A stretch of 64,000 bases of DNA from Minisyncoccota bacterium (GCA_021734905.1 JAIPIB010000001.1:71476-135475); one strand, 5' to 3'. Shown: positions 16,344 to 63,088, numbered from the stretch's first letter. Program-made: numbers and translations. Notes: generated by a model not told the origin, from the letters alone.

Positions 16344-16432
16344 GCAGAATCCATGCTCTAATAACATATAGAAAGGAAGTTTGTCTTTAAACTATATTAG
16401 TAGGTACACGCTCGTTACAATAGGAGGTGGCC

Positions 16433-16912
16433 ATGAGTAACTTTTTTCCAAAAGATACACCTTCGACCAAGAGGGAATTTTTGATTGAAGAGGTCAAATG
16501 TTCGGACGGAGTGTGTAAAACAAGGGTGACAAAAAATGGAACTTGTCTGAGTATGCAACCGTGGACGTTTGAAGAAAGTGTGCCATGGCAAGGAGGCTTC
16601 GCTACGGAATATTCAATTTGTTATGGTTGGGTACTTATAGTGAGTTTCGACAAAAAACGGCATCAGTTTTCCCACGAGGTCCTGGTTGCAAGTGTTCTTT
16701 GCAAGAGTAGGACACAAATAGATCCTAGCGTACCGCATGTTCTACTCTTGGGTCCGCGAGCGCGTATATCAATGTCTGGTGGTACTGAAATACCGAATAA
16801 CGCAGTATATTCAGAAGTTGTTGAATATGTTCATTCTCACGACAGTAATTATTGGAGGGAAAGAGTATGTGGTTTAACAACAGTAATTGATATCGCCATG
16901 AAGGATATTTAA
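16433..16912 (+). CDS. Hypothetical Cys-containing protein (159 aa)
   Basis: TAGGAGGTG SD placed before the second ATG (16433). No recognisable family. Confidence 0.5.
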   Translation: MSNFFPKDTPSTKREFLIEEVKCSDGVCKTRVTKNGTCLSMQPWTFEESVPWQGGFATEYSICYGWVLIVSFDKKRHQFSHEVLVASVLCKSRTQIDPSVPHVLLLGPRARISMSGGTEIPNNAVYSEVVEYVHSHDSNYWRERVCGLTTVIDIAMKDI

Positions 16913-28833: not shown

Positions 28834-29682
28834 ATGGTCAATTTTATAGGTATTGGAGCGCAACGAACGGGGACGTCGTGGGTATATGCATGTCTTTATG
28901 AACACCCAGATATTTGTATCCCTGTTAAAGAAATTCACTTTTTTAGTCGACCACGGTATGAAAATGGAAAAGAATGGTATGAAGACCATTTTAGGAAGTG
29001 TAAAAAAGAAAGTAGGTGCGGAGAATTTTCAACTTCGTATTTGTACTCAGATGTTGCTGCTGAGCGTATTTCTAAAGATTACCCAGAAGCAAGAATAATT
29101 GTCATTGTACGAAATCCTATTACGCGTGCGCTTTCACAGTATGGAAATGCAATAAAGGGAGGCGAGATACCCGAGACTATGTCTTTTGAGGAATATTACA
29201 AATCAGAGGCAAGTGTTCTTGAACAAGGACGTTATGTAGAACAACTTGAACGGTACCTTGAGAGATTTGACCGTTCACAAATACTTGTCCTCGTGTATGA
29301 AGATAATAAGAAAGATCCACGTGCATTTATTCACAGTATATATGAATTTCTTGGTGTGCGTTCTGACTTCGTGCCAAGTATGCTTCATGACACAATCAAT
29401 GCTACTCGTATACCAAAAAATGTTGTAATAGAAAAAATGATGCATCGTTTTTCAGAATATCTGAGACGGTACGGATTTGATCGACTCGTGCATCGTATTC
29501 GGCAATTAGGAATTCCTGAATTAATACGAGCCATGAATACAAAACCAAAAAAAGATGAGAGGCCAGTATTTAATCAAGAGTATCTCATGAATTATTTTAA
29601 GAACGACGTAACAAAACTCTCTTCGTTACTTGGGCGTGACCTTAATTCTGAGTGGGGAATAAGTGACACACATACACAATAA
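28834..29682 (+). CDS. Sulfotransferase (PAPS-dependent, Sulfotransfer_1/3-like)
   Basis: 5'-PSB loop IGAQRTGTSW and 3'-PB motif IVIVRNPITRALSQY. Confidence 0.75.
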   Translation: MVNFIGIGAQRTGTSWVYACLYEHPDICIPVKEIHFFSRPRYENGKEWYEDHFRKCKKESRCGEFSTSYLYSDVAAERISKDYPEARIIVIVRNPITRALSQYGNAIKGGEIPETMSFEEYYKSEASVLEQGRYVEQLERYLERFDRSQILVLVYEDNKKDPRAFIHSIYEFLGVRSDFVPSMLHDTINATRIPKNVVIEKMMHRFSEYLRRYGFDRLVHRIRQLGIPELIRAMNTKPKKDERPVFNQEYLMNYFKNDVTKLSSLLGRDLNSEWGISDTHTQ

Positions 29683-35304: not shown

Positions 35305-36339
35305 ATGAAAAAGAAGAAAGTATTTGTTACAGGAATCACTGGTCAAGACGGATCGTATTTAACGCCGATCTTACTTGATGCTGGATATGAGGTTCATGCA
35401 CTCGTACGTCTTCGTGGTGGAGATCGACCAGTCATTATTGATGACCTTGCGCGAGAAAAAAAAGTCATTTTTCATACAGGTTCACTTACGGACCTTTCTT
35501 CTTTAAGTACGATTTTGGAGGGGGTGAGACCAGATGAAGTTTATAATCTTGCGGCACAATCCCACGTAGTGTCTTCATTCAAAAGTCCCGTTGAAACATG
35601 GGACGTAAATTATTATGGTCTTGGACGCTTGGTCAATGAAGCACTTCGAGTAAATCCTGATGTGCGTATTTACCAAGCGTCGACAAGTGAAATGTTTGGT
35701 AATTCTCCAGCACCACAAAGTGAGAATACCCCGTTTGATCCTCAGAGTCCGTATGCAATGTCAAAAGCGATGGCACACACTGATTTTATTATGCACAAGA
35801 GAGCTTCAATGGGCGCGTTTGCCGTATCAGGCATTCTCTTTAATCATGAGTCACCAAGACGGGGAAGGGATTTTGTCACACGAAAAATTACGTTTTCTCT
35901 AGCTAAGATCGCATTTGGTTTACAAGAGTGTCTTGAGCTTGGGAACCTTAATGCAGTACGTGATTGGGGACATGCTGAAGACTATGTCCGCGCGATGTTT
36001 ATGATGCTCCAGCAAGACACTCCAGAAGATTATGTCATAGCGAGTGGCGAGTCACATTCAGTGCGAGATTTTGTTGAGATTGCCGCACAGTATTTTGGCA
36101 TCAATATTGCATGGGAAGGAGAAGGAAAAGCTGAAATAGGTCGTAACAAAATGACGGGAAAGATAGTTGTAAAAGTGAACCCAGAGTTTTATCGACCACG
36201 GGAAGTCAACTTCATTCAGGGGGATGCGACAAAGGCACACACAAAACTCGGATGGAAACCAAGGTATAGCTTTAGTGATATTGTCACTGAAATGGTGAAG
36301 TCTGATCAGGAATTAGTCCGTAGAGAATATAAATTATAA
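35305..36339 (+). CDS. gmd: GDP-mannose 4,6-dehydratase (paralog 1)
   Basis: KKVFVTGITGQDGSYL, YAMSKAMAH (YxxxK), ILFNHESPRRGRDFVTRKIT. Confidence 0.85.
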   Translation: MKKKKVFVTGITGQDGSYLTPILLDAGYEVHALVRLRGGDRPVIIDDLAREKKVIFHTGSLTDLSSLSTILEGVRPDEVYNLAAQSHVVSSFKSPVETWDVNYYGLGRLVNEALRVNPDVRIYQASTSEMFGNSPAPQSENTPFDPQSPYAMSKAMAHTDFIMHKRASMGAFAVSGILFNHESPRRGRDFVTRKITFSLAKIAFGLQECLELGNLNAVRDWGHAEDYVRAMFMMLQQDTPEDYVIASGESHSVRDFVEIAAQYFGINIAWEGEGKAEIGRNKMTGKIVVKVNPEFYRPREVNFIQGDATKAHTKLGWKPRYSFSDIVTEMVKSDQELVRREYKL

Positions 36340-36343
36340 TCGT

Positions 36344-37498
36344 ATGATTAAAAGTACCTATCTAAGAACCGCTATCCTTTTTTTGTTATCATTATTCTTT
36401 TCACTTTTCAGAGGAAAAGCTACTCGTGTGGCACCGAATATGACGCGTGTCGGAGTAATATATCTTACAGGTAATGTTGGGGATATGATCTTTTGTACAC
36501 CCATATTTCGAGCACTTAAGGAAGCAAAACCAGAAAGTGAAATGTATGTTATTGGTAGGAAGCGAAATGCAGATACACTTCGTTATAGTCCTCATGTGAA
36601 GGAATATATTGAATGCCCAAACTCGCCATACGCACTTTGGAAGATTCTGAGAGGACTCAAATTACAGTATGCCTTTATACTCAATCCTTCAACGCTTGAA
36701 CTTGCTCTTTTTTATCTTGCGAACGTCCAAGCGATTGCGACATTTTCTGCGCCAATTGCGTCTGCAGAAACACGAACGTATAGAATCTTAAAGAAACTTT
36801 GTATACAAATTCCATTTGCAGCTGGTGAGAATTTTGCAACTGAGAATCTTAAGTTAATTGCTCCCCTCGGTATTGTGTCTACTGATACGAGGAAGCATCT
36901 CTACTATTCAGAAGAAGCTCGTATTGGTATCCAGAATTTTCTTAAAGAACAAAATGTTGTTCTGGGGGTCAACATGGTCATTGCCCTCGCTCCTGGGGCA
37001 GGTACAAAAATAAAACAATGGCCGGCAGATAGATTTGCAAAGCTTGCAGACCACTTGTATGAAAAATATCATACCCCTATTTTTATCGTAGGAGGCCCTG
37101 GCGATAAAAAAGAATTTGAAGCGATGTCACAGGCACTAAATACTGAGACAAAGGTAGTATCATGTCTGCATCACACAATTGATGAACTAAAGGCATTTAT
37201 GGCACAAATAGATATTGTTATTGCAAATGATAGCGCACCAATCTATGTTGCTGAAGCTTTCGATAAAGCTACCGTAACGATTGTTGGGCCAACAGATGAA
37301 AATGAACATCCACCAAAAGGTGTGTTCGACAGAGTGGTAAAAAGCAAGGACAGAGGAGTTCCTGCTCTTGCTGCCAGTATTGCCAATGAGCAATCAAACA
37401 ACAGTGAGGACGCACGAAGTCAAATAGAAAAAGTGACTGTTCTAGAAGTGGTTGATACTGCTGATGAACTCATTGCTACCCTTGAAAAAGGCAGATAA
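36344..37498 (+). CDS. Glycosyltransferase family 9 (ADP-heptose:acceptor heptosyltransferase-like)
   Basis: N-terminal VIYLTGNVGDMIFCTPIFRALKEAKPESEMYVIG and C-terminal IFIVGGPGDKKEFEAM...IANDSAPIYVAEAF, typical of GT9. Confidence 0.65.
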   Translation: MIKSTYLRTAILFLLSLFFSLFRGKATRVAPNMTRVGVIYLTGNVGDMIFCTPIFRALKEAKPESEMYVIGRKRNADTLRYSPHVKEYIECPNSPYALWKILRGLKLQYAFILNPSTLELALFYLANVQAIATFSAPIASAETRTYRILKKLCIQIPFAAGENFATENLKLIAPLGIVSTDTRKHLYYSEEARIGIQNFLKEQNVVLGVNMVIALAPGAGTKIKQWPADRFAKLADHLYEKYHTPIFIVGGPGDKKEFEAMSQALNTETKVVSCLHHTIDELKAFMAQIDIVIANDSAPIYVAEAFDKATVTIVGPTDENEHPPKGVFDRVVKSKDRGVPALAASIANEQSNNSEDARSQIEKVTVLEVVDTADELIATLEKGR

Positions 37499-37542
37499 AC
37501 AGTGAATTTTAAATTTAGTAGTCATATGATATATTTACATCG

Positions 37543-38580
37543 ATGAAAAAAGCTCTCATTACAGGGATTACAGGACAAGACGGGTCGTACCTTGCTGAAT
37601 TTTTGCTACAAAAAGGCTATGAAGTTCATGGTTTAATGCGTCGTTCAAGTACGGAGCCACTGATTCGCATTCAGGATATTGTTTTTGATGGAAAGGTTAC
37701 TCTTCATATGGGTGATTTACGTGATCCTGCCTGCATCCAGCGTGTAATAGAACTTGTATCTCCAGATGAGATCTATAATTTTGCAGCACAGTCAGACGTC
37801 GGGATTTCGTTTAAGTGTCCAGAGGAAGCTTATTCCATTAACTTTGAAGGCGTACGAGATTTGGTTGAGGCAGCTTGGAAACACAATAAGGATGTTCGTT
37901 TTTACCAAGCGTCGACAAGTGAGATGTTTGGCTCAACGAATCCTCCTCAGAATGAAAAGGCGCCATTTCAACCAGTAAGTCCATATGCAGAAGCAAAACT
38001 CAAAGCCCATCAAGATGTTGTCCTTGAGTATCGGAAAAAATATGGAATGCACATTTCTTCAGGTATTCTTTTTAATCATGAGTCACCACGTAGAGGTAAA
38101 CATTTTGTGACTCGAAAAATCACTCACTCACTCGCTAAAGTAAAGCTTGGACTTCAGACACATGTGACTCTCGGTAACCTTGAAGCTAAGCGAGACTGGG
38201 GATATGCAGGAGATTATGTAGAGGCTATGTGGCTCATGCTTCAGGCTGAGACAGCTGATGATTATGTTATAGCAACGGGTGAGTCACGGTCTGTCCGTGA
38301 TTTTGTCGAGGCTGCAGCTGATTCATTGGGTATGAAAATTACTTGGGAAGGAGAGGGTGTTGATGAGGTTGGTAAAGATGAACATGGGGATGTTGTGGTT
38401 AAAATCTCTAAGAATTTTTACCGCCCGGCCGAAGTTGATTATCTCCTCGGAGATGCCACAAAAGCAAAAGAGAAACTTGGTTGGACTCCAAAAACCACGT
38501 TCCAAGAACTCGTACACATGATGGTTGCTTCAGACTTGAAGGATGCAAAATATGAGCAAATGAAAAAGAGTATTGAGTAA
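37543..38580 (+). CDS. gmd: GDP-mannose 4,6-dehydratase (paralog 2)
   Basis: KKALITGITGQDGSYLAEFLLQKGYEVHGLMRRSS, YAEAKLKAH, ILFNHESPRRGKHFVTRKIT. Confidence 0.85.
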   Translation: MKKALITGITGQDGSYLAEFLLQKGYEVHGLMRRSSTEPLIRIQDIVFDGKVTLHMGDLRDPACIQRVIELVSPDEIYNFAAQSDVGISFKCPEEAYSINFEGVRDLVEAAWKHNKDVRFYQASTSEMFGSTNPPQNEKAPFQPVSPYAEAKLKAHQDVVLEYRKKYGMHISSGILFNHESPRRGKHFVTRKITHSLAKVKLGLQTHVTLGNLEAKRDWGYAGDYVEAMWLMLQAETADDYVIATGESRSVRDFVEAAADSLGMKITWEGEGVDEVGKDEHGDVVVKISKNFYRPAEVDYLLGDATKAKEKLGWTPKTTFQELVHMMVASDLKDAKYEQMKKSIE

Positions 38581-38608
38581 ATTATTGATAATGCACCTTT
38601 AAGTATCT

Positions 38609-38998
38609 ATGAGTATACACATTCCTGTTTCAGCTGCAGAACTTATTGATAAAATCACAATTCTAGAAATCAAATGTTCGGAATTCACTGACAGTAATAA
38701 GCTTGCTAATGTTAAGGATGAACTTGATGCTCTAACCGAGGTAGTGAAGAGTAGTGTTAATGATTCGCTCGAACTCGAAAAGTTACACACAGAACTTCGG
38801 CTCATTAACAAGAAGATTTGGGATTCTGAGAATGACGTACGACAATTTTGGAATGATGATGAAAAATTTAATGCTGGAGCAAAACAGTCTCATTATTATA
38901 ATGATGAGCGAGCGCGAGTAAAAAAAGAAATAAACCAACTACTTGGTTCAAGTATTATAGAAGAAAAATCGCACCCAGCGTATGAGCACAAGGTCTAA
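38609..38998 (+). CDS. Hypothetical coiled-coil protein (129 aa) embedded between Gmd paralogs
   Basis: Overlaps both neighbours by a few nt, so operonic. No family recognised. Confidence 0.45.
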   Translation: MSIHIPVSAAELIDKITILEIKCSEFTDSNKLANVKDELDALTEVVKSSVNDSLELEKLHTELRLINKKIWDSENDVRQFWNDDEKFNAGAKQSHYYNDERARVKKEINQLLGSSIIEEKSHPAYEHKV

Positions 38999-39989
38999 AC
39001 GAGCCTTCATAACGGGAGTATATGGACAGGATGGATCGTATCTTGCTGAGGTTCTTCTTGATAGTGGATATGAGGTTCTTGGACTTGTGTCTCCTTCAGA
39101 TAAAAAGAATCAAGATGCAAAACTTTTTCAAGAGAAAAAAGAATTCTCTCTTTTTGTTGCTAATTTAGAAGATGCGGGACGTATCGTGGAAAAACTTGAA
39201 GAATTTCGACCACATGAAATATATAATCTTGCTGCAGTCTCTGATTTAAAAACAGCAAAAGAACGACCAGAGTATACCTACGATATAAATTATACTGCAT
39301 TCAAAAACCTTGTTACACATGCGACTGACATTGATTCTTCTGTGAAGATCTTTCAGGCACTCTCATCAAGAATTCTTGTTCCCAATACACAAGGCGTCAT
39401 CGAGGAGACTTCACAATTTTCTGAACCGAGTAATGCGTATGACAAAGCAAAAAGAGATTCGTATACGTTTGTCCGTGACTACAGAGACCGTGGTTTTTTT
39501 GTAGCATCAGGCTTTCTCTGTAATCATGAATCACCACGGAGGGGTCCTCGTTTCGTGACAGGGAAGATCGCACGAGGAGTCATTGATATTGAAAACGGAG
39601 CTATTGAAAAAATATATGTCGGGAATGTTAACGCCCTAAGGGACTGGAGTCACGCAAAAGATGTCGTGAGGGCGATGTATGCCGTCCTTCAAGTTCCTGT
39701 GTCAGACGATTATGTTATTGGGTCAGGTGAACTTCATTCGGTAAGAGATTTTATTAGTGAGGCTTTTAATGCTATAAAAATGCCCCTTACGTGGGCAGGT
39801 GAAGGTATAGATACGTATGCAGTCGATTTGAGCGGTACCGTTCGTGTAGCTGTTGATCCAGAATTCTTTCAAGTCGATGATAACCCAGTAGTCTCAAATA
39901 CAAAAAAGTTAAAGACAGACACAGGATGGTCACCAAAAATCTCTTTTTCAGAACTTATCTCGGAGATGGTAGAGGCTGAGCGCTTGTGA
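38982..39989 (+). CDS. GDP-mannose 4,6-dehydratase family protein (divergent paralog 3, possibly altered specificity)
   Basis: KRAFITGVYGQDGSYL, YDKAKRDSY, FLCNHESPRRGPRFVTGKIA. Confidence 0.75.
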   Translation: MSTRSKRAFITGVYGQDGSYLAEVLLDSGYEVLGLVSPSDKKNQDAKLFQEKKEFSLFVANLEDAGRIVEKLEEFRPHEIYNLAAVSDLKTAKERPEYTYDINYTAFKNLVTHATDIDSSVKIFQALSSRILVPNTQGVIEETSQFSEPSNAYDKAKRDSYTFVRDYRDRGFFVASGFLCNHESPRRGPRFVTGKIARGVIDIENGAIEKIYVGNVNALRDWSHAKDVVRAMYAVLQVPVSDDYVIGSGELHSVRDFISEAFNAIKMPLTWAGEGIDTYAVDLSGTVRVAVDPEFFQVDDNPVVSNTKKLKTDTGWSPKISFSELISEMVEAERL

Positions 39990-39990
39990 T

Positions 39991-41265
39991 TTATTTCTGA
40001 AAAGTAATTATCTCAAACTTTGGGCAGGGGACAATGAAGGCTCCTCCTTTCTCGAGGTACTCCTTTTCACGTGTTGTAAACTCATTTATGAAGTGCCAAG
40101 GTAAAACGAGCATGTAATCAGGTTTCTTATTTCGAGCTTCTTCCTCAGAGAATATTGGTATGTTAGATCCTGCTGTTTTCTTTCCATATTTTATTGATGA
40201 TCGCTCGGCGATTCCATCAATATGGTTGTCATTGAGGCCGTACCACTGAAGAAGAGTGTTTCCTTTTGTTGAAGCACCATAACCCATGATTTTCTTTCCA
40301 TCAAGCTTTGCCTGTTCAATAAAATCCATAGTCTGCTTCTTGAGCTCTTGTATCTGGGAGAAAAAGTCTGTATACGTCCGTGGATCTTTGAGGTTCATTT
40401 TTTCTTCGAGAGCGAGAATCCCATCGATACGCATTTGCGCAACGTCCCTGTATGGAGCTGTGGCGAAAAGCGATGCAGTTGCATCTTTTTTACGAATGTA
40501 GATTCTAAAACTACCACCGTTGATGTCGTTTAACTGACAGTCGACTACTCTAAGATCATGCTGGTCAAGGAGGTATATAAGAGACTCAAGGCTGTAATAC
40601 TCAAGATGTTCATGGCAGATATTATCAAAGGCGAGTTGCTTGAGCATGAGAGGAAGGTAACTCATCTGGATAATCCAGAGTCCTTCATCATCAAGTGAGT
40701 CGTATATATCAGAGACAAAGGCATGTGGTTCCTCGAGATCATAAAACATCGCGATGGACGTAATTATTTTTGCTTTCTGTAACCCTGTCTCTTTATATTT
40801 GTCTGCCGTGAAGTAGTCAACAATAACTTCGTCTGCATGTTTTTTTGATTCTTCCTCAAGGAAGGTATTAAGTGCTGGGTCGAAGCCAACTCTTTTTATT
40901 GAAGGGTCGACATTTGCTAGTAGCGTCCCATCGTTACACCCAATATCAAGCCACACATCATCTGAAGTAGGGTGTATCATTTTTGTTGCGCTCTCGGCTA
41001 TTTCTTTGAGTTCCTGTCGCATTGTCGCATTGGTGCCAGAGCGATACCAATACTCTCGGTACATTGCATCAAAGTCAGCAGTATGGGCGAGCTGGACGAG
41101 TCCAGATTTTGGAGCAAGCATCATTTTAAGTTCAACAGGTTCAAGACGTGGCTCAATATCAGGGTCAATGAAGTCTGAAATGTGGAGTTCTCCCAAGGTG
41201 AAAAGCTCAATGAGTGGCTCTCCAGATATTCGGCATACGGCACGATCCTCCTTGTTTTTTAGCAT
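39991..41265 (-). CDS. Sugar C-methyltransferase-like class I SAM methyltransferase (TylCIII/NovU-like architecture)
   Basis: LDIGCNDGTLL motif I. Two-domain size of 424 aa, consistent with an NDP-hexose C-methyltransferase N-terminal plus C-terminal domain. Assignment by overall resemblance only. Confidence 0.55.
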   Translation of the reverse strand: MLKNKEDRAVCRISGEPLIELFTLGELHISDFIDPDIEPRLEPVELKMMLAPKSGLVQLAHTADFDAMYREYWYRSGTNATMRQELKEIAESATKMIHPTSDDVWLDIGCNDGTLLANVDPSIKRVGFDPALNTFLEEESKKHADEVIVDYFTADKYKETGLQKAKIITSIAMFYDLEEPHAFVSDIYDSLDDEGLWIIQMSYLPLMLKQLAFDNICHEHLEYYSLESLIYLLDQHDLRVVDCQLNDINGGSFRIYIRKKDATASLFATAPYRDVAQMRIDGILALEEKMNLKDPRTYTDFFSQIQELKKQTMDFIEQAKLDGKKIMGYGASTKGNTLLQWYGLNDNHIDGIAERSSIKYGKKTAGSNIPIFSEEEARNKKPDYMLVLPWHFINEFTTREKEYLEKGGAFIVPCPKFEIITFQK

Positions 41266-41317: not shown

Positions 41318-42115
41318 ATGATACACTTCTACCATATATGGTTGTGGTGGGATCTGACTTTAGATATGTTCAAATTCATTAAAGAAAGATTATATTTTTT
41401 GAAACGGTGGTATCGACTCGTTTTTACCTATCCACAAGCAAAAATTTTGGTTGAGGAATCTCTTAATTATGATGAATACTGGAAAGAGAAGCGGGGTAAT
41501 ATCGATGGTACGCAAGCGCGCGCGATTTCAGCGAATGAAAAGATGCGAGCGGATTATGTTGCTCGAATCATTGGAAATACTGACTCTGTAGTGATTGGAG
41601 ACATTGCTTCTGGCCCGGGAGTCATCTACAACTACCTTAAGGGCAAAATACAGTTGCGGGGATACATCGGTTATGAATATTCTGAATATGCACTCAATGT
41701 TGCAAGATCTTTAGGTATGACGGGAGTGCAGTTCGATATAAATTCAGAGCGGGATCTCTCAGAAGTCCAAGAAGCAGATTATTTTCTTATGCTCGAAATT
41801 CTTGAGCATATCCCACATTCGGAGAAAGTTTTAGCATCTATGTATAACAAAGCGAGAAAAGGAGTATTTTTTTCATTCCCGAATTCTGGAAACTTCTTAT
41901 ATCGACTTAGGGTGCTCTTCGGTAGGATGCCAGCACAGTGGATTAAATTTCCTAATGAACATTTGCGTTTCTGGACATATACGGACTTGCAGTGGTGGCT
42001 CAAAGCTCTTGGATATAAAGACTATGAAATTTATGCGTACCGCGGTGCTCCAGTTTTAGAGAAAATCTGGCCAGCACTCTTCGCGGGTAGTTTTGTGGTT
42101 TATCTTAAAAAATGA
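41318..42115 (+). CDS. Class I SAM-dependent methyltransferase
   Basis: VVIGDIASGPGVIYNYL motif I and DYFLMLEILEHIP. Confidence 0.6.
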   Translation: MIHFYHIWLWWDLTLDMFKFIKERLYFLKRWYRLVFTYPQAKILVEESLNYDEYWKEKRGNIDGTQARAISANEKMRADYVARIIGNTDSVVIGDIASGPGVIYNYLKGKIQLRGYIGYEYSEYALNVARSLGMTGVQFDINSERDLSEVQEADYFLMLEILEHIPHSEKVLASMYNKARKGVFFSFPNSGNFLYRLRVLFGRMPAQWIKFPNEHLRFWTYTDLQWWLKALGYKDYEIYAYRGAPVLEKIWPALFAGSFVVYLKK

Positions 42116-42168: not shown

Positions 42169-43167
42169 TTGTATCAGCAAAATAATATGTTAGAACGTGA
42201 TTTAGTTGAAGAAAGAATTAAACAGACTATTGCTGCGGAAGTTGCAGCTGTCTCCAACTTGTCTGAGGGCATTGATGATAATTTTTATCGTGCAGTTGCA
42301 TTAATTGCTGATCGAGGTGGAAAGATACTCATCACCGGGGTTGGGAAATCAGGGTATATTGCTATGAAGATGGTCGCGACTCTTATTAGTCTTGGTCATG
42401 AATCGGTATTTTTAAATCCGCTTGATGCTTTACATGGAGATTCTGGGATGGTCAAGGATGACGATGTGTTGGTCGTCTTTTCTTTTTCTGGTGGATCACC
42501 TGAGTTGGTGAGGATCGTTGAGCACCTTAAGAAACATTTTTCTATTGGTGTCGTGACAATTACTGGGAATTGTAATTCTATGCTTTCAAAATTGTCTGAT
42601 GAAGCGATCACTTTTTCGGTGGAAGAAGAAGGGTGTCCTTTAGGTCTTGCACCTATGGCAAGTACGACAGCATCACTCGTAATTGCTGACAGTATTGCTG
42701 CAGCATTGACGTCACCTGACACTTTTAGGCAAGAACATTTTGCTATGTTCCATCCTGCAGGAAGTCTCGGGCTTTCATTAAAAAAAGTCAAAGAAATCAT
42801 GCGCGGAGGCGACGAATTACCAAAGGTATCGATGTATATTAGTTTTGAGGAAGTGCTTGAAGCAATAACTTCGCAACGGCTCGCGCAGATTGTCGGTGTT
42901 GTAGACGAGGAAGGGTATTTGGTTGGAGCACTCGGTGATGGAGATATAAGAAAAATGCTTATTAAACATGGAGACCTTCGGGGGAAACAGATTAATATCT
43001 TCATGAATCAATCACCTAAAACAATCAATGAAGATGATAGTCTGCAGGTCGCACTTCAAACAATGAAAGAACATAAAATTAACAATCTTTTTGTGACTGA
43101 TAGCAACAATGTCTATATTGGGTTTATTCATCTGCATGACATTGTTGGTGATTATGCAACGTCTTGA
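42169..43167 (+). CDS. kpsF: Arabinose-5-phosphate isomerase (KpsF/GutQ; SIS domain plus tandem CBS)
   Basis: GKILITGVGKSGYIAMKMVATLISLG (SIS) and two CBS repeats at the C-terminus. Confidence 0.85.
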   Translation: MYQQNNMLERDLVEERIKQTIAAEVAAVSNLSEGIDDNFYRAVALIADRGGKILITGVGKSGYIAMKMVATLISLGHESVFLNPLDALHGDSGMVKDDDVLVVFSFSGGSPELVRIVEHLKKHFSIGVVTITGNCNSMLSKLSDEAITFSVEEEGCPLGLAPMASTTASLVIADSIAAALTSPDTFRQEHFAMFHPAGSLGLSLKKVKEIMRGGDELPKVSMYISFEEVLEAITSQRLAQIVGVVDEEGYLVGALGDGDIRKMLIKHGDLRGKQINIFMNQSPKTINEDDSLQVALQTMKEHKINNLFVTDSNNVYIGFIHLHDIVGDYATS

Positions 43168-43200: not shown

Positions 43201-44706
43201 ATGAATTCTATGGAGCCTAATAAACATTATGCAATTGATCTTCTTACTCGGATTAATGCATTGCAACATAACGGAAAAGATATTTCCTTAGCCTTTATCG
43301 AAGGCAAGTATTCACGATGGGCATTTCAGCAGTTTTTCCTCCTGAGTCAGATTGAGGAATTCAGTAAGACAAAAGATTTTTCAAATTATATTAAGAGACG
43401 AAAGCCACGATATGGGACCATTAGTATTTTTTTTGTCATCCTTTTCGAAGTTGTGACTGTGTTTTTTACGATACTACAAATTATGTACGTTCGTATTCAT
43501 CGTCCAAGAGTAATAACATTTTCATCGGATTTTTTAGATGCTTCGACCCATCTTAATCCACGATTGCGAAATATTTATTCATATTTTCATGCTAAAAATA
43601 TATCTTACGTTGAAATTCTCCATGTTACGACAGTGCGAAATTTTCTTATAAATATATGGAAACGAGGAGGATTAAGTATTTATCTTGAAGCATTTAACAC
43701 AGTATCACGTGCATGGACTTTTGTGAGTCGAAAAACTAATGCTGATGACTTTGTTAAGGAGCTTGATTTACAGAACATTCATGAAGATGAGCGTAAATTT
43801 GTCGAGTACCTTATTGCTGAGGCTGTTGAAAAAATTCAAGTCGCTAAAATAAATTCCGTCATTATTCAAGCCTTTTTACGTTTCAGTGGTGTGCGGGAAT
43901 ATGTATCTGCAGATGATTTCCGATATATACCTGAGTTGCTCCTTGCTTGTGAAAGGGAACATATACCATCGTATGTATTTCAACACTCAAATTTTGGATA
44001 TCTGACTGGAATGTATTTATTACCACCACAGATATATATTTTTCCTTTAATTTTCTTTACGTGGAATGCTTACTGGAAGAGAAGAATTAAAGAAATAAGT
44101 CCATTTTTTTCAGAGTATGGGTCTCGTATTGAAATCGGAGGACGTTCATTTACACCAGCGCAACCCGTACAGGTCATTCGTAAGAAGTTGGACAGCACAA
44201 GAGATAGCATTTCAGTACTAATTCCATATGAAGTTTCTGTGAGCAGGGATCAAATTATTCCATACACTAGCCAACTTCTTGGCGACTCACGAATCAGAAT
44301 ATTTTTTGTTCTAAGAGGAACCATTGATCAGATTGATTATGGAATGCAACTGGATAAATACTTTACTTCTGAACATCAAAAGAGCCCACAACTGGTTGTC
44401 GTGGAACCATCTGGACGGCAAGGAGCCGTCGAAAATTGTAATGTCATTGCAGGCGTGTATTCTGGTTTCCTTGATGAGTCGATTGAGACAGGTGTGCCAA
44501 TTTGTGTATTCATGACTGATTTTCTCACGGTAAATAGGCTCGATGAAGACAATCTTGCGTCCACTATTGACTATGTTCAGGGGAATATCTATGATCAGCT
44601 ACGCAGTGCTTGTATGACACCAGACCATATTTTGTCTGAGAGAAGAGAGAGAGTTCATTCGGGCACTGTAGATATTCGTAAGACACTGCAGAGGATATTG
44701 GAATAA
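43201..44706 (+). CDS. Hypothetical membrane-associated protein (501 aa) sandwiched between kpsF and kdsB. Candidate Kdo-handling transferase, by inference only.
   Basis: One TM helix around residues 70-95. No motif I can name. The function is suggested solely by gene context. Confidence 0.45.
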   Translation: MNSMEPNKHYAIDLLTRINALQHNGKDISLAFIEGKYSRWAFQQFFLLSQIEEFSKTKDFSNYIKRRKPRYGTISIFFVILFEVVTVFFTILQIMYVRIHRPRVITFSSDFLDASTHLNPRLRNIYSYFHAKNISYVEILHVTTVRNFLINIWKRGGLSIYLEAFNTVSRAWTFVSRKTNADDFVKELDLQNIHEDERKFVEYLIAEAVEKIQVAKINSVIIQAFLRFSGVREYVSADDFRYIPELLLACEREHIPSYVFQHSNFGYLTGMYLLPPQIYIFPLIFFTWNAYWKRRIKEISPFFSEYGSRIEIGGRSFTPAQPVQVIRKKLDSTRDSISVLIPYEVSVSRDQIIPYTSQLLGDSRIRIFFVLRGTIDQIDYGMQLDKYFTSEHQKSPQLVVVEPSGRQGAVENCNVIAGVYSGFLDESIETGVPICVFMTDFLTVNRLDEDNLASTIDYVQGNIYDQLRSACMTPDHILSERRERVHSGTVDIRKTLQRILE

Positions 44707-44739: not shown

Positions 44740-45495
44740 ATGAATATAAATAAAGATATAAAAGTACTCGGAGTAATATCAGCTCGAATTGGATCAACAC
44801 GAGTATCGAGAAAGATGCTTAAGGATGTCTATGGGAAGACGCTCATTTGCAGGGCGTATGAGAGGACTGTTCAGGCAAAAAAATTAGACGCACTTGTAAT
44901 TGCAACAGATTCGGATGAAATTGAAGCTGAAGCAAAATCATTTGGAGCAAAGGTTATTCGGTCCATCAAGGAGCATGCGAATGGTACGGAACGCACAGCT
45001 GAAGCCGTAAAAATATTTGATGAATTTCTTCCTGATACTGTGGTGACTGTTTGGGGTGATGAGCCAACCTACCCTGCCTCAGCAATTGATGATTGTATTG
45101 ATTTGTTTCATACGGGTAAGTTTGATGTCGTTATACCTTCATTCAAGATCCATAATCCAGCATCCATAGATGATCCAAGTGTGGGGAAGGTGGTTACCGA
45201 TATTCATGGACGTATTTTGTATCTCTCTCGTTCTACTATTCCACATAATTATAAAGGTGCGAGTGTCGATTACTATCATGCGAGTGGTGCAATGATTATG
45301 CATCGAGACTTTTTTGATATTTATAGTTCACTTCCAAGAACAGGATTAGAGGCGATAGAAGATATTGAACAACTGAGAATTCTTGAGCAAGGATATTCGA
45401 TTGGAACTATTAAAACCAATTTTTTGAATCAAGGGGTAAATACACCGGAAGATTATGAAGCCGTCGTTCAAATATATAAAGAACGAGAAGGGTAG
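44740..45495 (+). CDS. kdsB: 3-deoxy-manno-octulosonate cytidylyltransferase (CMP-Kdo synthetase)
   Basis: HANGTERTAEAV...VVTVWGDEPTYP, LYLSRSTIP, EDIEQLRILEQGYSIGT...GVNTPEDY align block-for-block with E. coli KdsB. Confidence 0.8.
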   Translation: MNINKDIKVLGVISARIGSTRVSRKMLKDVYGKTLICRAYERTVQAKKLDALVIATDSDEIEAEAKSFGAKVIRSIKEHANGTERTAEAVKIFDEFLPDTVVTVWGDEPTYPASAIDDCIDLFHTGKFDVVIPSFKIHNPASIDDPSVGKVVTDIHGRILYLSRSTIPHNYKGASVDYYHASGAMIMHRDFFDIYSSLPRTGLEAIEDIEQLRILEQGYSIGTIKTNFLNQGVNTPEDYEAVVQIYKEREG

Positions 45496-49085: not shown

Positions 49086-49796
49086 ATGAAACGAATAACA
49101 ATTTCTGGAGGTTTTGATCCGATACATCCTGGACACATTGCGATGATTGAGGATGCAAAGAAGTTTGGTGAGGTACACGTAATTGTAAACAGTGATGATT
49201 GGCTTATACGAAAGAAGGGTTTCTTTTTTCAACCGTGGACAGATCGTAAAAAAATCCTTGAAGCGTATACACCACATGTTTATGATGTCGATGATTCTGA
49301 TGGTACTGTCTGTGAAGCACTTCGTCGTATTAGGCCAGACTATTTTGGAAATGGCGGTGATAGGGGAAAGACAAATACTCCAGAATTAAATGTGTGTGAG
49401 GAGCTCGGTATAGAGCCGGTTTTTGAACTTGGTGGAGGGAAATATTCTTCAAGCTCAGCATTGAATGCAAAACAGCGAGTGAGTACACGATGGGGTTGGT
49501 TTGACGTTATCCTTGATATGCACGCACTGAAAGTAAAAATGCTTCATATTGAAGCAGGGAAATCATTATCGCTCCAAAAGCATGGTGACAGGAGTGAGTT
49601 CTTTTTTATGCCTACCGGAGAAGTGAGGGTAAATCTTCCTGGCGTATGGCATGTGCTTGAAGCACCAAGCGACCAAGACCTGGATGTTCTCGAGGTCCAA
49701 ATGGGAATTTCGGCAGAGGAAGATATTGATAAGATACATGAGACTCATGAGTCGTTTGACGTTGAAAAAGTAAAGAAAATACTTCTGAATAGATAG
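49086..49796 (+). CDS. Fusion of a HIGH-motif (cytidylyltransferase-like, RfaE-domain-II/TagD-type) nucleotidyltransferase with a PMI-type cupin
   Basis: N-terminal ISGGFDPIHPGHIAMIEDAKKFG (HxGH). C-terminal RWGWFDVILDMHALKVKMLHIEAGKSLSLQKHGDRSEFFFMPTGEVRV parallels the ManC PMI cupin (RPWGxY...KVKRI.V.PG..LS.Q.H.HR.E.W). Confidence 0.65.
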   Translation: MKRITISGGFDPIHPGHIAMIEDAKKFGEVHVIVNSDDWLIRKKGFFFQPWTDRKKILEAYTPHVYDVDDSDGTVCEALRRIRPDYFGNGGDRGKTNTPELNVCEELGIEPVFELGGGKYSSSSALNAKQRVSTRWGWFDVILDMHALKVKMLHIEAGKSLSLQKHGDRSEFFFMPTGEVRVNLPGVWHVLEAPSDQDLDVLEVQMGISAEEDIDKIHETHESFDVEKVKKILLNR

Positions 49797-53008: not shown

Positions 53009-54685
53009 TTGTCACTTAGAATAAATAAATTATATATGAATACAGAGCATGCTGATATCCTACATCTTCCGCGACTTAATCTGCGTGGAAGGCAACTCCA
53101 CGATCTTGAGGTGATGCTCGTGGGTGGATTTCTTCCTGTAACGGGATTTATGGATGAGGAGGATTATACTTCTGTAGTAGAGACAATGCGACTCAAAAAC
53201 GGTTCACTTTTTCCTATTCCGATTGTGCTCGATATTCCTGCAAAGAGTCCGTATGTCGTTGGCGACAAAATTTTGCTCTGTGATTCTTTTGGTAACCCCC
53301 TCTCAGTTATGGATGTCACCTCACGGTTTACACCAGATAAAAAAAGGGAAGCGCAGGCTGTGTATGGAACTGAAGATACTATGCATCCAGGGGTACAGTA
53401 TCTTTTCAGTGAAATGCATGACACCTACATTGGAGGAACACTATCGAAGCTTGCGCTTCCAATTCGAAACGACTTCAAACAATTTAGAAAAACACCGGAA
53501 GAACTTAAGGTTATATTTAAGGAGAAAGGATGGGACAGGGTTGTTGGTTTCCAGACGCGCAACCCAATGCATCGTGCACATTTTGAGCTTGTTAAACGCG
53601 CATATGAAAAAGTCGGTGCCCCCGTGCTCGTACACCCTGTTGTTGGGATGACAAAGCCTGGCGATATTGATTACGTGACGAGAGTTCGTACGTATAACAT
53701 TGTCTGTAATAGTTATGGAAAGGATTTTACGTATCTTTCCCTCTTGCCACTTGCTATGCGTATGGCAGGCCCACGAGAGGCCGTATGGCATGCGATTATT
53801 CGAAAGAATTACGGGTGTACGCATTTTATCTCTGGGCGCGATCATGCAGGTCCTGGCAAAGGGAGTGATGGAAAAGATTTTTATGGACCATATGACGCGC
53901 GCGATCTTGCACTTAAATATGCTGATGAGATAGGCATTACTATCATTGCATCTGATGAGCTTGCATATTCTAAGACGCGACAATCGTATGTCGCCGCTGA
54001 CGAAGTGACTCATGAAGATGAAATTGAGAATATTTCAGGTACTGAATTTAGAAGGAAGCTGCGTGAAGGTGAAGATATTCCCGAATGGTTTTCGTTTAAG
54101 GAAAGCATTGATATATTGCGTGAAAGTGTCCGAAAGGATATTCGACCCGGTGTCACTTTCTTTTTTACAGGACTCTCATGTTCTGGTAAGTCGACACTCG
54201 CCCAACTACTTCTTGCTCGTCTTCAAGAAATTCAAGATCGTGAAGTGACATTCCTTGACGGTGACGTCATTCGTGAAAATCTTTCAAAAGGCCTCGGTTT
54301 CTCAAAGGAGGATCGGGATGAAAATGTAAAGAGAGTTGGGTTTGTTGCTAGTGAAGTGGTGAAGCACGGAGGAATAGCCATTTGTTCACTTATTGCACCA
54401 TACCGTGATACGCGTCGATATGTGCGAAATATGATAGAGCACCATGGTGAGTTTATTGAAATATTCGTGAATGCGTCTGTTGATGAGTGTGCGAGGCGCG
54501 ATACAAAGGGTCTCTATGAAAAGGCCCGCAAGGGACTCATTAAGGGATTTACTGGTGTTGATGACCCATATGAAGAGCCTGAAAATCCAGAGCTCATTGC
54601 CTTGACTGAAGAAAATTCTCCGGAAGTAATTGTCGAAGAAATACTGAAATATCTACATGAACGTGAGATATTCAAGCGGAAGTAG
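53009..54685 (+). CDS. Bifunctional sulfate adenylyltransferase (ATP sulfurylase) / adenylylsulfate kinase (PAPS synthase)
   Basis: N-terminal GFQTRNPMHRAHFEL (QTRN/HRAH ATP-sulfurylase motifs). C-terminal VTFFFTGLSCSGKSTLA P-loop and APS-kinase fold. Confidence 0.85.
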   Translation: MSLRINKLYMNTEHADILHLPRLNLRGRQLHDLEVMLVGGFLPVTGFMDEEDYTSVVETMRLKNGSLFPIPIVLDIPAKSPYVVGDKILLCDSFGNPLSVMDVTSRFTPDKKREAQAVYGTEDTMHPGVQYLFSEMHDTYIGGTLSKLALPIRNDFKQFRKTPEELKVIFKEKGWDRVVGFQTRNPMHRAHFELVKRAYEKVGAPVLVHPVVGMTKPGDIDYVTRVRTYNIVCNSYGKDFTYLSLLPLAMRMAGPREAVWHAIIRKNYGCTHFISGRDHAGPGKGSDGKDFYGPYDARDLALKYADEIGITIIASDELAYSKTRQSYVAADEVTHEDEIENISGTEFRRKLREGEDIPEWFSFKESIDILRESVRKDIRPGVTFFFTGLSCSGKSTLAQLLLARLQEIQDREVTFLDGDVIRENLSKGLGFSKEDRDENVKRVGFVASEVVKHGGIAICSLIAPYRDTRRYVRNMIEHHGEFIEIFVNASVDECARRDTKGLYEKARKGLIKGFTGVDDPYEEPENPELIALTEENSPEVIVEEILKYLHEREIFKRK

Positions 54686-54892: not shown

Positions 54893-57112
54893 ATGAAAGA
54901 TATTGCAAAAGGATTAGTGTACATGGGGATTTTTGCCATCCCTTTCATTCCGCTTATCATCTCTAATTCAATGTTCTTCCCATTTATTACTGGAAAGAAC
55001 TTCACATTCCGTATCCTTGTCGAAATCGTTTTTATTGCATGGATAATTCTCGCTGCGTATGAGCCAGCGTATCGACCGAAACGTTCGGCGATAGCGTTGA
55101 GTTTCCTTTTGTTTCTTGTTGTTATGTTTGTCGCTAATATTAATGGGCAATATCCATTAAAAAGTTTTTGGAGTAACTTTGAACGAATGGAAGGATACGT
55201 AACACTCGTACATACTTTCGCCTATATGCTTGTTCTCGGAAGTGTGTTTACGACCCAAAAAATTTGGGATAGGTATTTTATGACCATCATTGGTTCAGCA
55301 ATGATTCTTTCTCTGTACGCATTTGCACAGCTTTCTGGAAATATTGTCATCAATCAAGGTGGGGGACGACTTGATGGAACACTTGGGAATTCTGCCTATA
55401 TGGCAATCTACACGCTCTTCCTTATTTTTATAACATTTTTTATGCTGCTCCGAACTCAGAGCAAAGGCATGCGATATGGGTATAGTGCACTCATACTTCT
55501 CTTCATGTATTTATTACTGCAGACTGCCACTCGAGGAACAGTACTAGGTCTCGTAGGAGGTATGTTTATTGCTGTCTCTTATATCGCATTATTAATAAAA
55601 AGTCATCCACATGTACGTAAGTACGCAGTTGGTGGATTGGTGGCAATAGTAGCGAGTGTGACACTTTTCATTACATTTAAGGAATCTTCTTTCATTCAAG
55701 GAAATCCCTATCTCGCACGTATTGCAACTATTTCTTTAAAAGAAGGATCAAACCGTTTTGAAATTTGGAGCATGGCATTTGAGGGGGTAAAAGAACGTCC
55801 ACTTCTTGGATGGGGGCAAGGAAACTACAATTATGTCTTTAACAAGTACTATGAGCCTGAACTTCATGGGGGAGAAGCATGGTTCGACCGTGTTCATAAT
55901 ATTGTTATGGATTGGTTGATTGCTGGTGGATTCATTGGTGCCGTTGCCTATTTCTCAATTCTTGGTTCTGCAGTGTACTATCTTTTCTTCCGCCCACTCT
56001 TCAAGAAGGATGATGAAGCGTTTACTGTCGTGGAACGTGGAGTTCTCTTGGGAATTCTTGCAGGGTACACAGTACACAATCTCTTTGTGTTCGATAATAT
56101 TGTGAGTTATGTGTTTTATGGAACGATACTCGCATATATTCATTCACGGACAAGTACTGGTATTCCTGCACTTGAGCGGTGGAAGATCGATGTTCGTGTT
56201 GTTGAACAGGTAGTAGTTCCTGTTATGACAATCCTCCTTGTCATAACAGTCTACTTTGTAAATGTTCCAGCTATACAGGCATCGAAAGATATTATTAACG
56301 CATTCCGAGCAAAAGATCCGAATGAGATGCTTAAAAATTTTGATATTGCTCTTGCACGAAATTCGTTTGGAAATCAAGAGATACGCGAACAACTTACTCA
56401 ACGTGCGCAATCAGTCTTTCAAGATCCGAACGCACCAGAAGCATTAAAACAGAAGACGTTTAAACGTGTTGAAGAGGAGTTGCAAAAGCAGATAGAAGAG
56501 AAGCCCAATGATGCAAGAGTCGAGGTGTTTATCAGCTCATTCTATCGAATGACTAATAATCTTGATCAGGCGGTTACTCACCTTGAGAAAGCTCGATCAC
56601 TTTCCCCACGAAAGCAGCTCATTATCTTTGAGCAAGGTACGGTAGCATTGCAGAAACAGGAATTCGAGAAAGCTACAGAATTCTTTAAGGAGGCTTACGA
56701 ACTTGGACCACAGTTTATAGAGTCGCGTGTGTATTACGCAACCGCATTGGTTTATGGTGGGCAACTTGGGCTTGTTGGCGACCTTATCCAAACAGAAGAA
56801 CAGAAGAATGCCTTTGCAGTAAATGAAAATGCAGTTAGAGCAGTTTACCAGGCAAAAATGTATCCAATGCTTAAAGATATGTTTGCGCGACAAATTGTGC
56901 TAAATCCAAACAATGGACAAGTAAGAACGAATCTTGCGTATGTATTGAGCGAGACGGGAGATACTGCAGGAGCAATCGACGTCCTTACAAAGGCAGGAGA
57001 GGATATTCCAAGTTTCAAGGAACAGGCGGATCAATTTATAGCAACCATTAAAAATGAAGATCCTGCAACACCGACTGTAGAAATTAATGGGCAGAAAGTT
57101 CAGACTGAATAA
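54893..57112 (+). CDS. O-antigen ligase/polymerase-like (Wzy_C) membrane domain fused to C-terminal TPR repeats
   Basis: About 12 TM helices with a periplasmic loop TRGTVLGLVGG...LLGWGQGNY. C-terminal roughly 250 aa show TPR-like repeats. Confidence 0.7.
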   Translation: MKDIAKGLVYMGIFAIPFIPLIISNSMFFPFITGKNFTFRILVEIVFIAWIILAAYEPAYRPKRSAIALSFLLFLVVMFVANINGQYPLKSFWSNFERMEGYVTLVHTFAYMLVLGSVFTTQKIWDRYFMTIIGSAMILSLYAFAQLSGNIVINQGGGRLDGTLGNSAYMAIYTLFLIFITFFMLLRTQSKGMRYGYSALILLFMYLLLQTATRGTVLGLVGGMFIAVSYIALLIKSHPHVRKYAVGGLVAIVASVTLFITFKESSFIQGNPYLARIATISLKEGSNRFEIWSMAFEGVKERPLLGWGQGNYNYVFNKYYEPELHGGEAWFDRVHNIVMDWLIAGGFIGAVAYFSILGSAVYYLFFRPLFKKDDEAFTVVERGVLLGILAGYTVHNLFVFDNIVSYVFYGTILAYIHSRTSTGIPALERWKIDVRVVEQVVVPVMTILLVITVYFVNVPAIQASKDIINAFRAKDPNEMLKNFDIALARNSFGNQEIREQLTQRAQSVFQDPNAPEALKQKTFKRVEEELQKQIEEKPNDARVEVFISSFYRMTNNLDQAVTHLEKARSLSPRKQLIIFEQGTVALQKQEFEKATEFFKEAYELGPQFIESRVYYATALVYGGQLGLVGDLIQTEEQKNAFAVNENAVRAVYQAKMYPMLKDMFARQIVLNPNNGQVRTNLAYVLSETGDTAGAIDVLTKAGEDIPSFKEQADQFIATIKNEDPATPTVEINGQKVQTE

Positions 57113-62416: not shown

Positions 62417-63088
62417 ATGAAAAACATGAAATTGATAGTAGAGGTGGGTGTTGTTGTAATAGTGCTTGCACTATTAGGAGCTACGTCCTTACTGAGTGGG
62501 TATCTCCCCGTTGAAAATCTTATGTTGATTGCAGATGAGAATAGAGTGCTCGGGGCATTTCTTTTTACGCTCATTATGTTTGCAACAACCGTTCTCGCAC
62601 CACTCACCGCAATTCCGCTTGTCCCTATGGTGGCTCCATTCTTAGGCCCGTTTACAACAGGAGTTGCATGTTTTACTGGATGGATACTTGGTGCGGTGGT
62701 TGCTTTTGTGATTGGTAAAAAATATGGACAACCGTTTGTGTCTCGGTTCATTGACATGCAGACAATAAAGAAATACGAAAGCTACATCAAACCAGATATA
62801 AGTTTTCTTATGATTGTAGTATTACGTATGGTCGTTCCTGTTGATGTTCTCAGTTATGCTCTTGGTATCTTTACGACGACCATATCACTTCGAACATACA
62901 CGCTCGCAAGCATGATAGGGATAGTGTGGTTCTCCTTTGCTCTCGCATATGCTGGAGATGCGCTCGTTAGTCGTAACTATGTACTTTTGATGAGTATCAG
63001 TGTAGCATCAGTGGTCATTCTCTATTTTTCATGGCGTTATGTGAGGCGTGTCCTTGGAACCACAGAAAATAAGAGTATCTTTAAATAA
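62417..63088 (+). CDS. DedA/TVP38/TMEM64-family membrane protein
   Basis: 223 aa with multiple TM helices. MIVVLRMVVPVDVLSYALGIFTT... is typical of SNARE-associated/DedA proteins. Confidence 0.65.
   Translation: MKNMKLIVEVGVVVIVLALLGATSLLSGYLPVENLMLIADENRVLGAFLFTLIMFATTVLAPLTAIPLVPMVAPFLGPFTTGVACFTGWILGAVVAFVIGKKYGQPFVSRFIDMQTIKKYESYIKPDISFLMIVVLRMVVPVDVLSYALGIFTTTISLRTYTLASMIGIVWFSFALAYAGDALVSRNYVLLMSISVASVVILYFSWRYVRRVLGTTENKSIFK

Follow-up and report, generated by a model that had tools for sequence, protein, structure and literature searches.

The stretch of DNA analyzed here, called the window below, is a 64,000-nucleotide segment from a Minisyncoccota bacterium (GCA_021734905.1, JAIPIB010000001.1:71476-135475). 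From about 24 to 57 kb it carries a large, gene-dense surface-polysaccharide locus, read mostly from the plus strand, and positions 35305-41265 within it hold a conserved sugar-nucleotide and transferase module of Candidatus Pacebacteria, which belong to the Candidate Phyla Radiation (CPR, or Patescibacteria). The module comprises six open reading frames (ORFs), whose coordinates are exactly those of an earlier sequence-only reading of the same DNA. Five are found on the plus strand: Gmd1 (35305-36339, 344 aa), a family GT9 glycosyltransferase with a hydrophobic segment at its N-terminus (36344-37498, 384 aa), Gmd2 (37543-38580, 345 aa), a DUF6165 protein (38609-38998, 129 aa), and Gmd3 (38982-39989, 335 aa), whose start is overlapped by the DUF6165 ORF by 17 nt. 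The sixth, a C-methyltransferase of 424 aa, is encoded on the minus strand (39991-41265) and converges with Gmd3 at a distance of 1 nt. [quoted passage not shown] All three paralogs are full-length and match the Pfam profile PF16363 (GDP_Man_Dehyd) from position 1 to 332, with 394.8 bits for Gmd1, 427.4 for Gmd2, and 257.9 for Gmd3. Gmd1 and Gmd2 share 55% identity and Gmd3 has 39% identity to each of them, which rejects a recent duplication, and the quoted motifs NHESPRRG, YxxxK, GVYGQDG, and LCNHESPRRGP were all found. The GT9 assignment is matched by PF01075, the unknown protein belongs to PF19662 (DUF6165), and the methyltransferase is of the type proposed, its convergent orientation on the minus strand having gone unstated.

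GMDs are recognized by the fingerprint [ST]SE…Yx3K, in which the single Glu provides an additional acid/base for dehydration (PMC8987622). Two further yardsticks were the NCBIfam GMD equivalog TIGR01472, with a cut-off of 415 bits, and the RR loop, an Arg-Arg pair after strand beta-2 (R35…R43 in Pseudomonas aeruginosa GMD). Gmd2 passes TIGR01472 with 443.7 bits, contains the complete fingerprint (ASTSE…YAEAK) and an intact RR loop (RRSS…R), and matches the solved GMD 2z1m at 375 bits. On these motifs and scores it is predicted to be a true 4,6-dehydratase of GDP-mannose, and it is the dehydratase that is conserved in the module. Gmd1 falls slightly short of the cut-off (406.9 bits) and its RR loop is altered to RLRGG, conforming only in part; its fingerprint is complete (ASTSE…YAMSK), and it matches solved GMDs at 345-348 bits. 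An ortholog of Gmd1 was found only in the related contigs L002/L003, where it also lies between GT4 and GT9 genes, and there too the RR loop is altered while all catalytic residues are kept. By its fingerprint, therefore, Gmd1 is a putative accessory, catalytically complete 4,6-dehydratase of the GMD type. In a neighbor-joining tree both proteins cluster with canonical Gmds of the CPR with 76% support. A GDP-heptose dehydratase of the DmhA/WcbK type was considered for both and rejected, since they score 86-89 bits against 7us5 as opposed to 345-375 bits against GMDs.

The third paralog had also been read as a Gmd-type dehydratase, and this assignment was not borne out. HMMER alignments to human GMD give Gmd3 the motifs ALSSR…YDKAK, with Arg130 at the position of the catalytic Glu. 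The RR loop is replaced by SPSD, which contains no Arg, and the TIGR01472 score of 248.8 bits lies 166 bits under the cut-off. Gmd3 scores 141-217 bits against GMDs and 74.2 bits against the GDP-D-rhamnose-forming reductase RMD 2pk3, and no match to a second RMD, 6x3b, was obtained at E<=1e-10. Database matches fall into a clade of 36 clusters (P0001-P0036) with 269-744 bits and 42-63% identity to Gmd3, after which ordinary Gmds follow at no more than 256 bits (P0037-P0120, n=84). The clade is recovered with 100% bootstrap support in the neighbor-joining tree, and its replacements are nearly fixed. The Glu position is occupied by Arg in 36/36 clusters ([ST]SR) and by Glu in 84/84 of the next matches. 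The residue following the catalytic Tyr is Asp in 35/36 as opposed to Gly or Ala in 84/84, the residue preceding NHESPRRG is Cys in 35/36 and Phe in 84/84, and the motif FVTRKI reads FVTGKI in 35/36, with Arg kept in 75 of the 84. Similarly, the RR pair is present in 0/36 of the clade and in 80/84 of the next matches, and the second variable position of GxxG (as in GITGQDG) is Tyr or Phe in 32/36 and Thr or Ser in 83/84. Conversely, YxxxK is present in 36/36, and no member of the clade departs from the redox triad Ser/Tyr/Lys or from the three Gly of GxxGxxG. Most motifs of the GDP-sugar site are also kept in Gmd3, the canonical YRPxEV being changed to YxxDD-NP.

The defining fingerprint thus sets Gmd3 apart from the GMDs, and its sequence sets it apart from the RMDs. 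The most fitting description is a short-chain dehydrogenase/reductase (SDR) of a new subfamily that derives from GMD and is associated with a C-methyltransferase. With both the catalytic Glu and the RR loop lost, and with translational coupling to DUF6165 through the 17-nt overlap, it could also be a dead pseudo-enzyme that binds a GDP-sugar or acts as a scaffold or regulator together with Gmd2 or the methyltransferase. This is highly improbable, for a triad and Gly-rich motif that remain invariant at 42-63% identity are unexpected in a dead enzyme. Because these elements are retained across so divergent a clade, Gmd3 is argued to be an active oxidoreductase rather than the product of a pseudogene.

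The convergent gene encodes a protein with methyltransferase domains PF08484 (Methyltransf_14, 155.7 bits) and PF13489 (48.5 bits). Of the pair Methyltransf_13/14 named for checking in the sequence-only reading, Methyltransf_14 is thus matched; PF08421 (Methyltransf_13) reaches 22.5 bits, under its cut-off of 31.3. This score is sub-threshold because three of the four Cys of the N-terminal zinc ribbon have been lost: CRISG stands in place of CRxCG and the second Cys pair is gone, leaving 1/4 Cys in this degenerate ribbon. The same loss is found in all orthologs from CPR modules. Among solved structures the protein matches, over its full length, the D-mycarose 3-C-methyltransferase MtmC (4rv9, 2e-48, residues 11-420) and TcaB9 (E = 2e-32), and because these are its closest solved relatives it is not a generic O-methyltransferase. 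The catalytic motif D-x-I-x-H-E-H and the S-adenosylmethionine (SAM)-binding motif LDIGCNDG are retained, with FDNICHEHLEYY aligning to FDQIYDEHFF of TcaB9 and FDTIYHEHLSY of MtmC. The conserved Glu-His of the D-x-I-x-x-E-H motif is presumably E224/H225 in TcaB9. Moreover, the enzyme has the motifs YWYRSG, SIAMFYDLExP, ICHEHLEYYSL, and YGASTKGN in common with other methyltransferases associated with Gmd genes; they are not found in the dTDP-acting MtmC and TcaB9. The scores divide in the same way, with 288-803 bits to Gmd-associated homologs and 115-168 bits to MtmC and TcaB9.

No gene for Fcl, Rmd, RmlA/B, or ManC, and none of the dTDP-glucose pathway, turned up when window ORFs of 150 aa or more were scanned, four such ORFs (2563-3060, 3187-3651, 16427-16912, and 62417-63088) not having been put through the family library; for Fcl and Rmd this agrees with the sequence-only reading, which had recognized neither nearby. 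The possibility that the SDR encoded at 15462-16343 is an overlooked Rmd or Fcl was rejected, as this protein is GalE/UXS-like (97 bits to 4zrm and 38.7 to RMD 2pk3). Since the scanned ORFs include no dTDP-glucose gene and Gmd genes are constant neighbors of the methyltransferase, a GDP-linked 4-keto-6-deoxyhexose is the substrate most economically assumed for it.

The GT9 protein scores 63.8 bits against PF01075 (cut-off 22). It lies under every NCBIfam heptosyltransferase cut-off (TIGR02195, 75.2 vs 134.6; TIGR02201, 69.5 vs 170.2; TIGR02193, 51.2 vs 185.3). With all equivalogs sub-threshold, it was rejected as an ortholog of heptosyltransferase I, II, or III of lipopolysaccharide (LPS) synthesis, and it is presumed to be the transferase of the module. 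The 129-aa protein matches PF19662 with 32.8 bits (cut-off 27), and a 100%-identical database entry carries the name 'DUF6165 family protein'. The family has 5745 matches, with 45-50% identity between phyla and approximately 26 invariant residues, mostly polar, and with an invariant EEKSY at the C-terminus. AlphaFold2 (AF2) gives a confident four-helix bundle (pLDDT 86.2), for which structure comparison returned no informative neighbor.

The DUF6165 genome loci (L009-L088, L006, and L008) come from Proteobacteria, Planctomycetota, Bacteroidota, and others; the best 80 listed are mostly from Proteobacteria and include no CPR, so that they speak for the family outside the CPR only. In 49/80 a GT9-like ORF is no more than 300 nt from DUF6165, and in 59/80 no more than 3 kb; such ORFs number 74 in 963 kb of DUF6165 loci vs 5 in 483 kb of unrelated loci. 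A Pfam check of ten of these neighbors placed seven above the GT9 gathering score, the other three being TPR fusions with a weak GT9 signal or none. Because GT9-like neighbors are so frequent, and seven of ten were confirmed by Pfam, DUF6165 looks like a companion of GT9 transferases. Among the same 80 best loci, mostly proteobacterial, no link of DUF6165 to Gmd or methyltransferase genes was found. GT9 and DUF6165 enclose the sugar-nucleotide genes in the CPR module.

The arrangement recurs in every long contig that carries a gene of the Gmd3 clade: GT9, a Gmd2 ortholog, DUF6165, Gmd3, and a convergent C-methyltransferase. Seven module contexts were compared, namely the window, L001 (168 kb), L002/L003, L004/L005, L089, L090, and L170. 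The Gmd2 ortholog is present in 7/7 full-length contexts and is separated from DUF6165 by zero to two small ORFs. The GT9 gene lies upstream of Gmd2 in L001, L002, L004, L089, L090, and L170, and beside DUF6165 in L092, a locus of a different organism described below. The Gmd3-clade gene always sits between DUF6165, with which it shares a 17-nt overlap in the related contigs as well, and the convergent methyltransferase. Gmd1 was found in only 2/7 contexts, the window and L002/L003. Thus, the core is Gmd2, Gmd3, and the methyltransferase, bracketed by GT9 and DUF6165; the idea, implied by the sequence-only reading, that the three tandem Gmd genes form the functional unit is not supported, and they are a local elaboration, since the Gmd1 ortholog occurs in only one related genome. 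Promoters and terminators sought in 33.5-43.3 kb were about as numerous as chance would make them (24 vs 25.2 expected; 9 vs 6.2 expected).

These contexts bear on the proposal that all three paralogs are working 4,6-dehydratases giving several GDP-6-deoxyhexoses, with one of them bifunctional. Three full-length PF16363 proteins, each with NHESPRRG and YxxxK, speak for it, as does the catalytic completeness of Gmd1 and Gmd2, which makes two dehydratase activities plausible, and bifunctional GMDs have been reported in literature to which PMC3539893 refers. Taken as a whole it is nevertheless very unlikely, as Gmd3 lacks the dehydration Glu and falls far below the equivalog cut-off, and its clade is linked to the methyltransferase and not to other Gmd genes. 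A bifunctional enzyme is also unneeded, because each related locus has a dedicated GMD-derived non-dehydratase adjoining the methyltransferase. What stands of the same proposal is its suggestion that a C-branched GDP-6-deoxyhexose is made.

The reading towards which the evidence leans, if by no great measure, is that the module makes a GDP-linked, C-methyl-branched 6-deoxy sugar through Gmd2, the methyltransferase, and Gmd3, and that this sugar is transferred by the GT9 with or without DUF6165. Gmd2 would convert GDP-mannose to GDP-4-keto-6-deoxy-D-mannose, and the TylC3-like enzyme would then use SAM to methylate a carbon next to the keto group, most likely C3 by homology. The methylated intermediate would then have its 4-keto group reduced by Gmd3, with NAD(P)H as an exchangeable cofactor. 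Such a cofactor, perhaps of the NADH type, would fit the lost RR clamp and the acidic residues that stand in its place. This reduction would yield a GDP-6-deoxy-3-C-methyl-hexose of evalose or virenose type, and the membrane-anchored GT9, perhaps aided by DUF6165, would move the sugar onto the growing glycan. Gmd1 could act as an accessory dehydratase, for example by supplying extra keto-sugar or by feeding a branch of the D-rhamnose type.

Metagenome contigs were scanned with the alignment of the Gmd3 clade and the patterns [YF]GQDGSYL and LCNHESPR. In addition to CPR contigs, this gave many non-CPR loci where the immediate neighbor of a TylC3-like methyltransferase is a GMD-like protein of another kind, referred to as SCL. 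SCL proteins contain the motifs GIFGQDGSY, LAAxHxSS, (V/I)LAGSCLMFD, SxYGLAKI, and AILYNHESPRR, and where the sources name them they are called 'GDPmannose 4,6-dehydratase'. They form a clade of their own with 100% bootstrap support in the neighbor-joining tree, which is not sister to the Gmd3 clade. Leu, Val, or Met takes the place of the Glu in 90/90 of its clusters, and YxxxK is present in 88/90. SCL genes stand beside a TylC3-like methyltransferase in L093, L124, L131, L141, L143, L150, L153, L154, and L156, and also in L158-L161, L165, and L167-L169. In L093, L124, L140, and L148 a canonical Gmd, a C-methyltransferase, and a Glu-less paralog occur together as a complete trio. A further variant is found at 6503-10249 of L092, from an organism with 33% GC, where GT9, DUF6165, a Gmd-like protein with Ser-Ser-Gln (Glu replaced by Gln), and a convergent C-methyltransferase reproduce the CPR gene order minus the inserted canonical Gmd. 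Neighboring genes there are Maf/MptE-like, PseB-like, and B12-radical-SAM genes, and the locus looks like a flagellin- or protein-glycosylation island using the same four-gene core.

The association was quantified in the metagenome loci, a sample picked by sequence patterns whose absolute frequencies are biased and whose internal contrast is not. A C-methyltransferase lies within 1 kb of 22/25 Glu-less and 7/70 Glu-containing GMD-like ORFs (odds ratio 66, Fisher p = 1.3e-12), and two of the three Glu-less exceptions are cut by contig ends. No canonical Gmd was found within 8 kb in L092, L169, L131, and L153, all of which have a Glu-less paralog and a C-methyltransferase. Such pairs would be expected if Gmd3, like the SCL clade, were a non-dehydrating C4 oxidoreductase with a bound cofactor that oxidizes GDP-mannose or another GDP-hexose and later reduces it back. 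The product would then be a non-deoxy 3-C-methyl-hexose, with Gmd2 and Gmd1 serving a separate 6-deoxy branch. Such a sugar exists in nature, 3-C-methyl-D-mannose having been found in some Helicobacter pylori O-antigens (PMC12961483), and the retained redox triad would allow this chemistry. Even so, the scheme is unlikely for the CPR module, where canonical Gmd2 lies inside the GT9-DUF6165 interval in 7/7 contexts and where the loss of the RR loop, the cofactor clamp of GMDs, argues against a tightly held cofactor; in the other loci, the missing Gmd may be encoded elsewhere.

Several points weigh against the pathway of dehydration, C-methylation, and reduction favored here. L092 and L169, with no canonical Gmd within 8 kb, fit a self-sufficient oxidizing and reducing role equally well. 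The literature searched contains no demonstration of a TylC3-type enzyme acting on a GDP-sugar, and no GDP-mannose pyrophosphorylase gene was found among the scanned ORFs of the window. GT9 enzymes characteristically use ADP-heptose, so that a GDP-deoxyhexose donor would be unusual. Moreover, the GDP recognition and nucleotide specificity of Gmd3 are uncertain because the YRPxEV motif is changed. Lastly, Arg130 is paired with the clade-specific Asp beside the catalytic Tyr (35/36), and Arg130/Asp154 together with Cys180 could serve epimerization or an atypical dehydration chemistry.

This last point could be taken further, with Gmd3 acting as a GMER/Fcl-like epimerase-reductase that inverts C3 and/or C5 before C4 is reduced, which would give an L- or gulo/talo-configured branched sugar. 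R130, D154, and C180, three clade-invariant changes to polar or ionizable residues near active-site motifs, would provide the acid/base groups. The epimerization base of GMER occupies the position that corresponds to the GMD Glu. An inverted center is, furthermore, required for virenose-type sugars (PMC3539893). Apart from the SDR fold, though, Gmd3 has no sequence relation to Fcl, and C3 once methylated could no longer be epimerized by enolization, which leaves this scheme decidedly unlikely.

Downstream of the module, a MetW-like class I methyltransferase is encoded at 41318-42115 (+; PF13489 39.5 bits, PF07021 33.9 bits). This neighbor is conserved, with orthologs next to the modules of L002 (431 bits), L090 (403 bits), and L170, and a role in O-methylation is possible. 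It is followed by a KpsF/KdsD isomerase (42169-43167, +; TIGR00393 247.1 bits, above cut-off), a conserved protein of 501 aa (43201-44706, +), and a KdsB cytidylyltransferase (44740-45495, +; NF003952 200.9 bits, above cut-off). Genes of this 3-deoxy-D-manno-octulosonic acid (Kdo) type are commonly found downstream of the module, with homologs of KpsF, the protein of about 500 aa, and KdsB flanking it in L002, L004, L090, and L170. L002 also carries a KdsA-like DAHP_synth_1 gene (14472-15422). These neighbors likely belong to the same glycan locus, outside the sugar-nucleotide core, and since they occur in a CPR bacterium that should lack LPS they point to a capsule or cell-wall glycan that contains a sugar of the Kdo type. 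For the 501-aa protein, no Pfam match was obtained in five orthologs and no PDB profile match was returned, and a single-sequence AF2 model was uninformative (pLDDT 34.6). Its C-terminal part (…VYSGFLDESIETGVP…) recalls GT-B or capsule-synthesis enzymes.

Other features of the window were noted in passing. A 236-aa fusion at 49086-49796 (+) joins a cytidylyltransferase-like domain, resembling domain II of RfaE, to a PMI-type cupin (PF01050 36.7 bits); its TIGR02199 score of 44 bits is far under the cut-off, and it does not have the usual ManC architecture. By analogy, it may parallel an HldE-like protein with reversed domains in Coxiella (cbu0678), which is needed for the virenose-containing O-antigen (PMC5843353). 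The polysaccharide locus also encodes a sulfotransferase (28834-29682, +) and a fused ATP sulfurylase/APS kinase (53009-54685, +), and the related CPR locus L170 has two sulfotransferases (1-758 and 15959-16831); a sulfated surface glycan is therefore suggested in these CPR bacteria. At 54893-57112 (+), a fusion protein of 739 aa consists of a Wzy_C/O-antigen-ligase domain and, C-terminal to it, TPR repeats. The region 10929-14358 (+), upstream of the glycan locus, encodes a TrwB/VirD4-like coupling ATPase (669 aa) and, after it, a protein of 479 aa that has lamin-tail and PKD domains.

It is quite possible, if short of probable, that the SSR- and SCL-type proteins, annotated throughout as GDP-mannose 4,6-dehydratase, are two unrecognized GMD-derived families which partner TylC3-like C-methyltransferases, that they mark the first GDP-linked branched-chain sugar pathways, with the CPR version firmly tied to a GT9/DUF6165 pair for transfer, and that DUF6165 is a GT9 accessory. 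As regards annotation, dozens to hundreds of database entries under that name have no dehydratase residue and probably serve another function. C-methyl branching of GDP-sugars is without biochemical demonstration, and the virenose route of the Q-fever O-antigen is still a model; the trio of dehydratase, C-methyltransferase, and Glu-less paralog would offer concrete enzymes for the branching route. If the reading is true, ultra-small CPR bacteria put effort into a complex surface glycan that contains a branched deoxy sugar, and this glycan may bear on host attachment and phage recognition. The link to GT9 would also give a first handle on the widespread DUF6165 family.

The closest known parallel is the route to virenose (6-deoxy-3-C-methyl-gulose) in Coxiella burnetii, for which an in silico GDP pathway comprises Gmd CBU0689, the TylCIII-like CBU0691, and a GMER/Fcl-like reductase (PMC3539893). 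Both systems place a GMD and a C-methyltransferase of the TylC3 family in a surface-polysaccharide locus and follow the order of dehydration, C-methylation, and reduction. They differ in the final step, which is of the Fcl type in Coxiella, whereas in the window the partner is a paralog that derives from GMD and lacks the dehydratase Glu. GT9 and DUF6165 come in addition, and the CPR host of the window has no outer membrane. A second parallel is the GMD/RMD pair of GDP-D-rhamnose synthesis in P. aeruginosa and Aneurinibacillus thermoaerophilus, in which an SDR 4-ketoreductase comes after the dehydratase and works on a GDP-4-keto-6-deoxyhexose. The role proposed for Gmd3 is analogous to that of RMD. 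However, Gmd3 is, strictly speaking, no homolog of RMD (74 bits to 2pk3 vs 217 to GMDs) and is coupled to a C-methyltransferase, and its sequence suggests that the GMD scaffold was recruited independently.

The methyltransferase shares the three-domain architecture, the HEH catalytic motif, and a full-length alignment with TylC3, EryBIII, MtmC (4rv9), and TcaB9 (3ndi). The characterized TylC3-type members act on dTDP-linked sugars. These dTDP-sugar 3-C-methyltransferases have a four-Cys zinc ribbon and RmlA/RmlB partners, whereas the enzyme of the window has lost the ribbon and has GDP-mannose enzymes as its partners. Finally, the GT9 protein shares its Pfam domain with the LPS heptosyltransferases WaaC, WaaF, and WaaQ and is, likewise, linked to Kdo-pathway genes. 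It differs from them in that its organism should lack LPS and in that the neighboring genes point to a GDP-deoxyhexose rather than ADP-heptose. The pathway is thus a variation on known deoxysugar logic and not a new kind of system.

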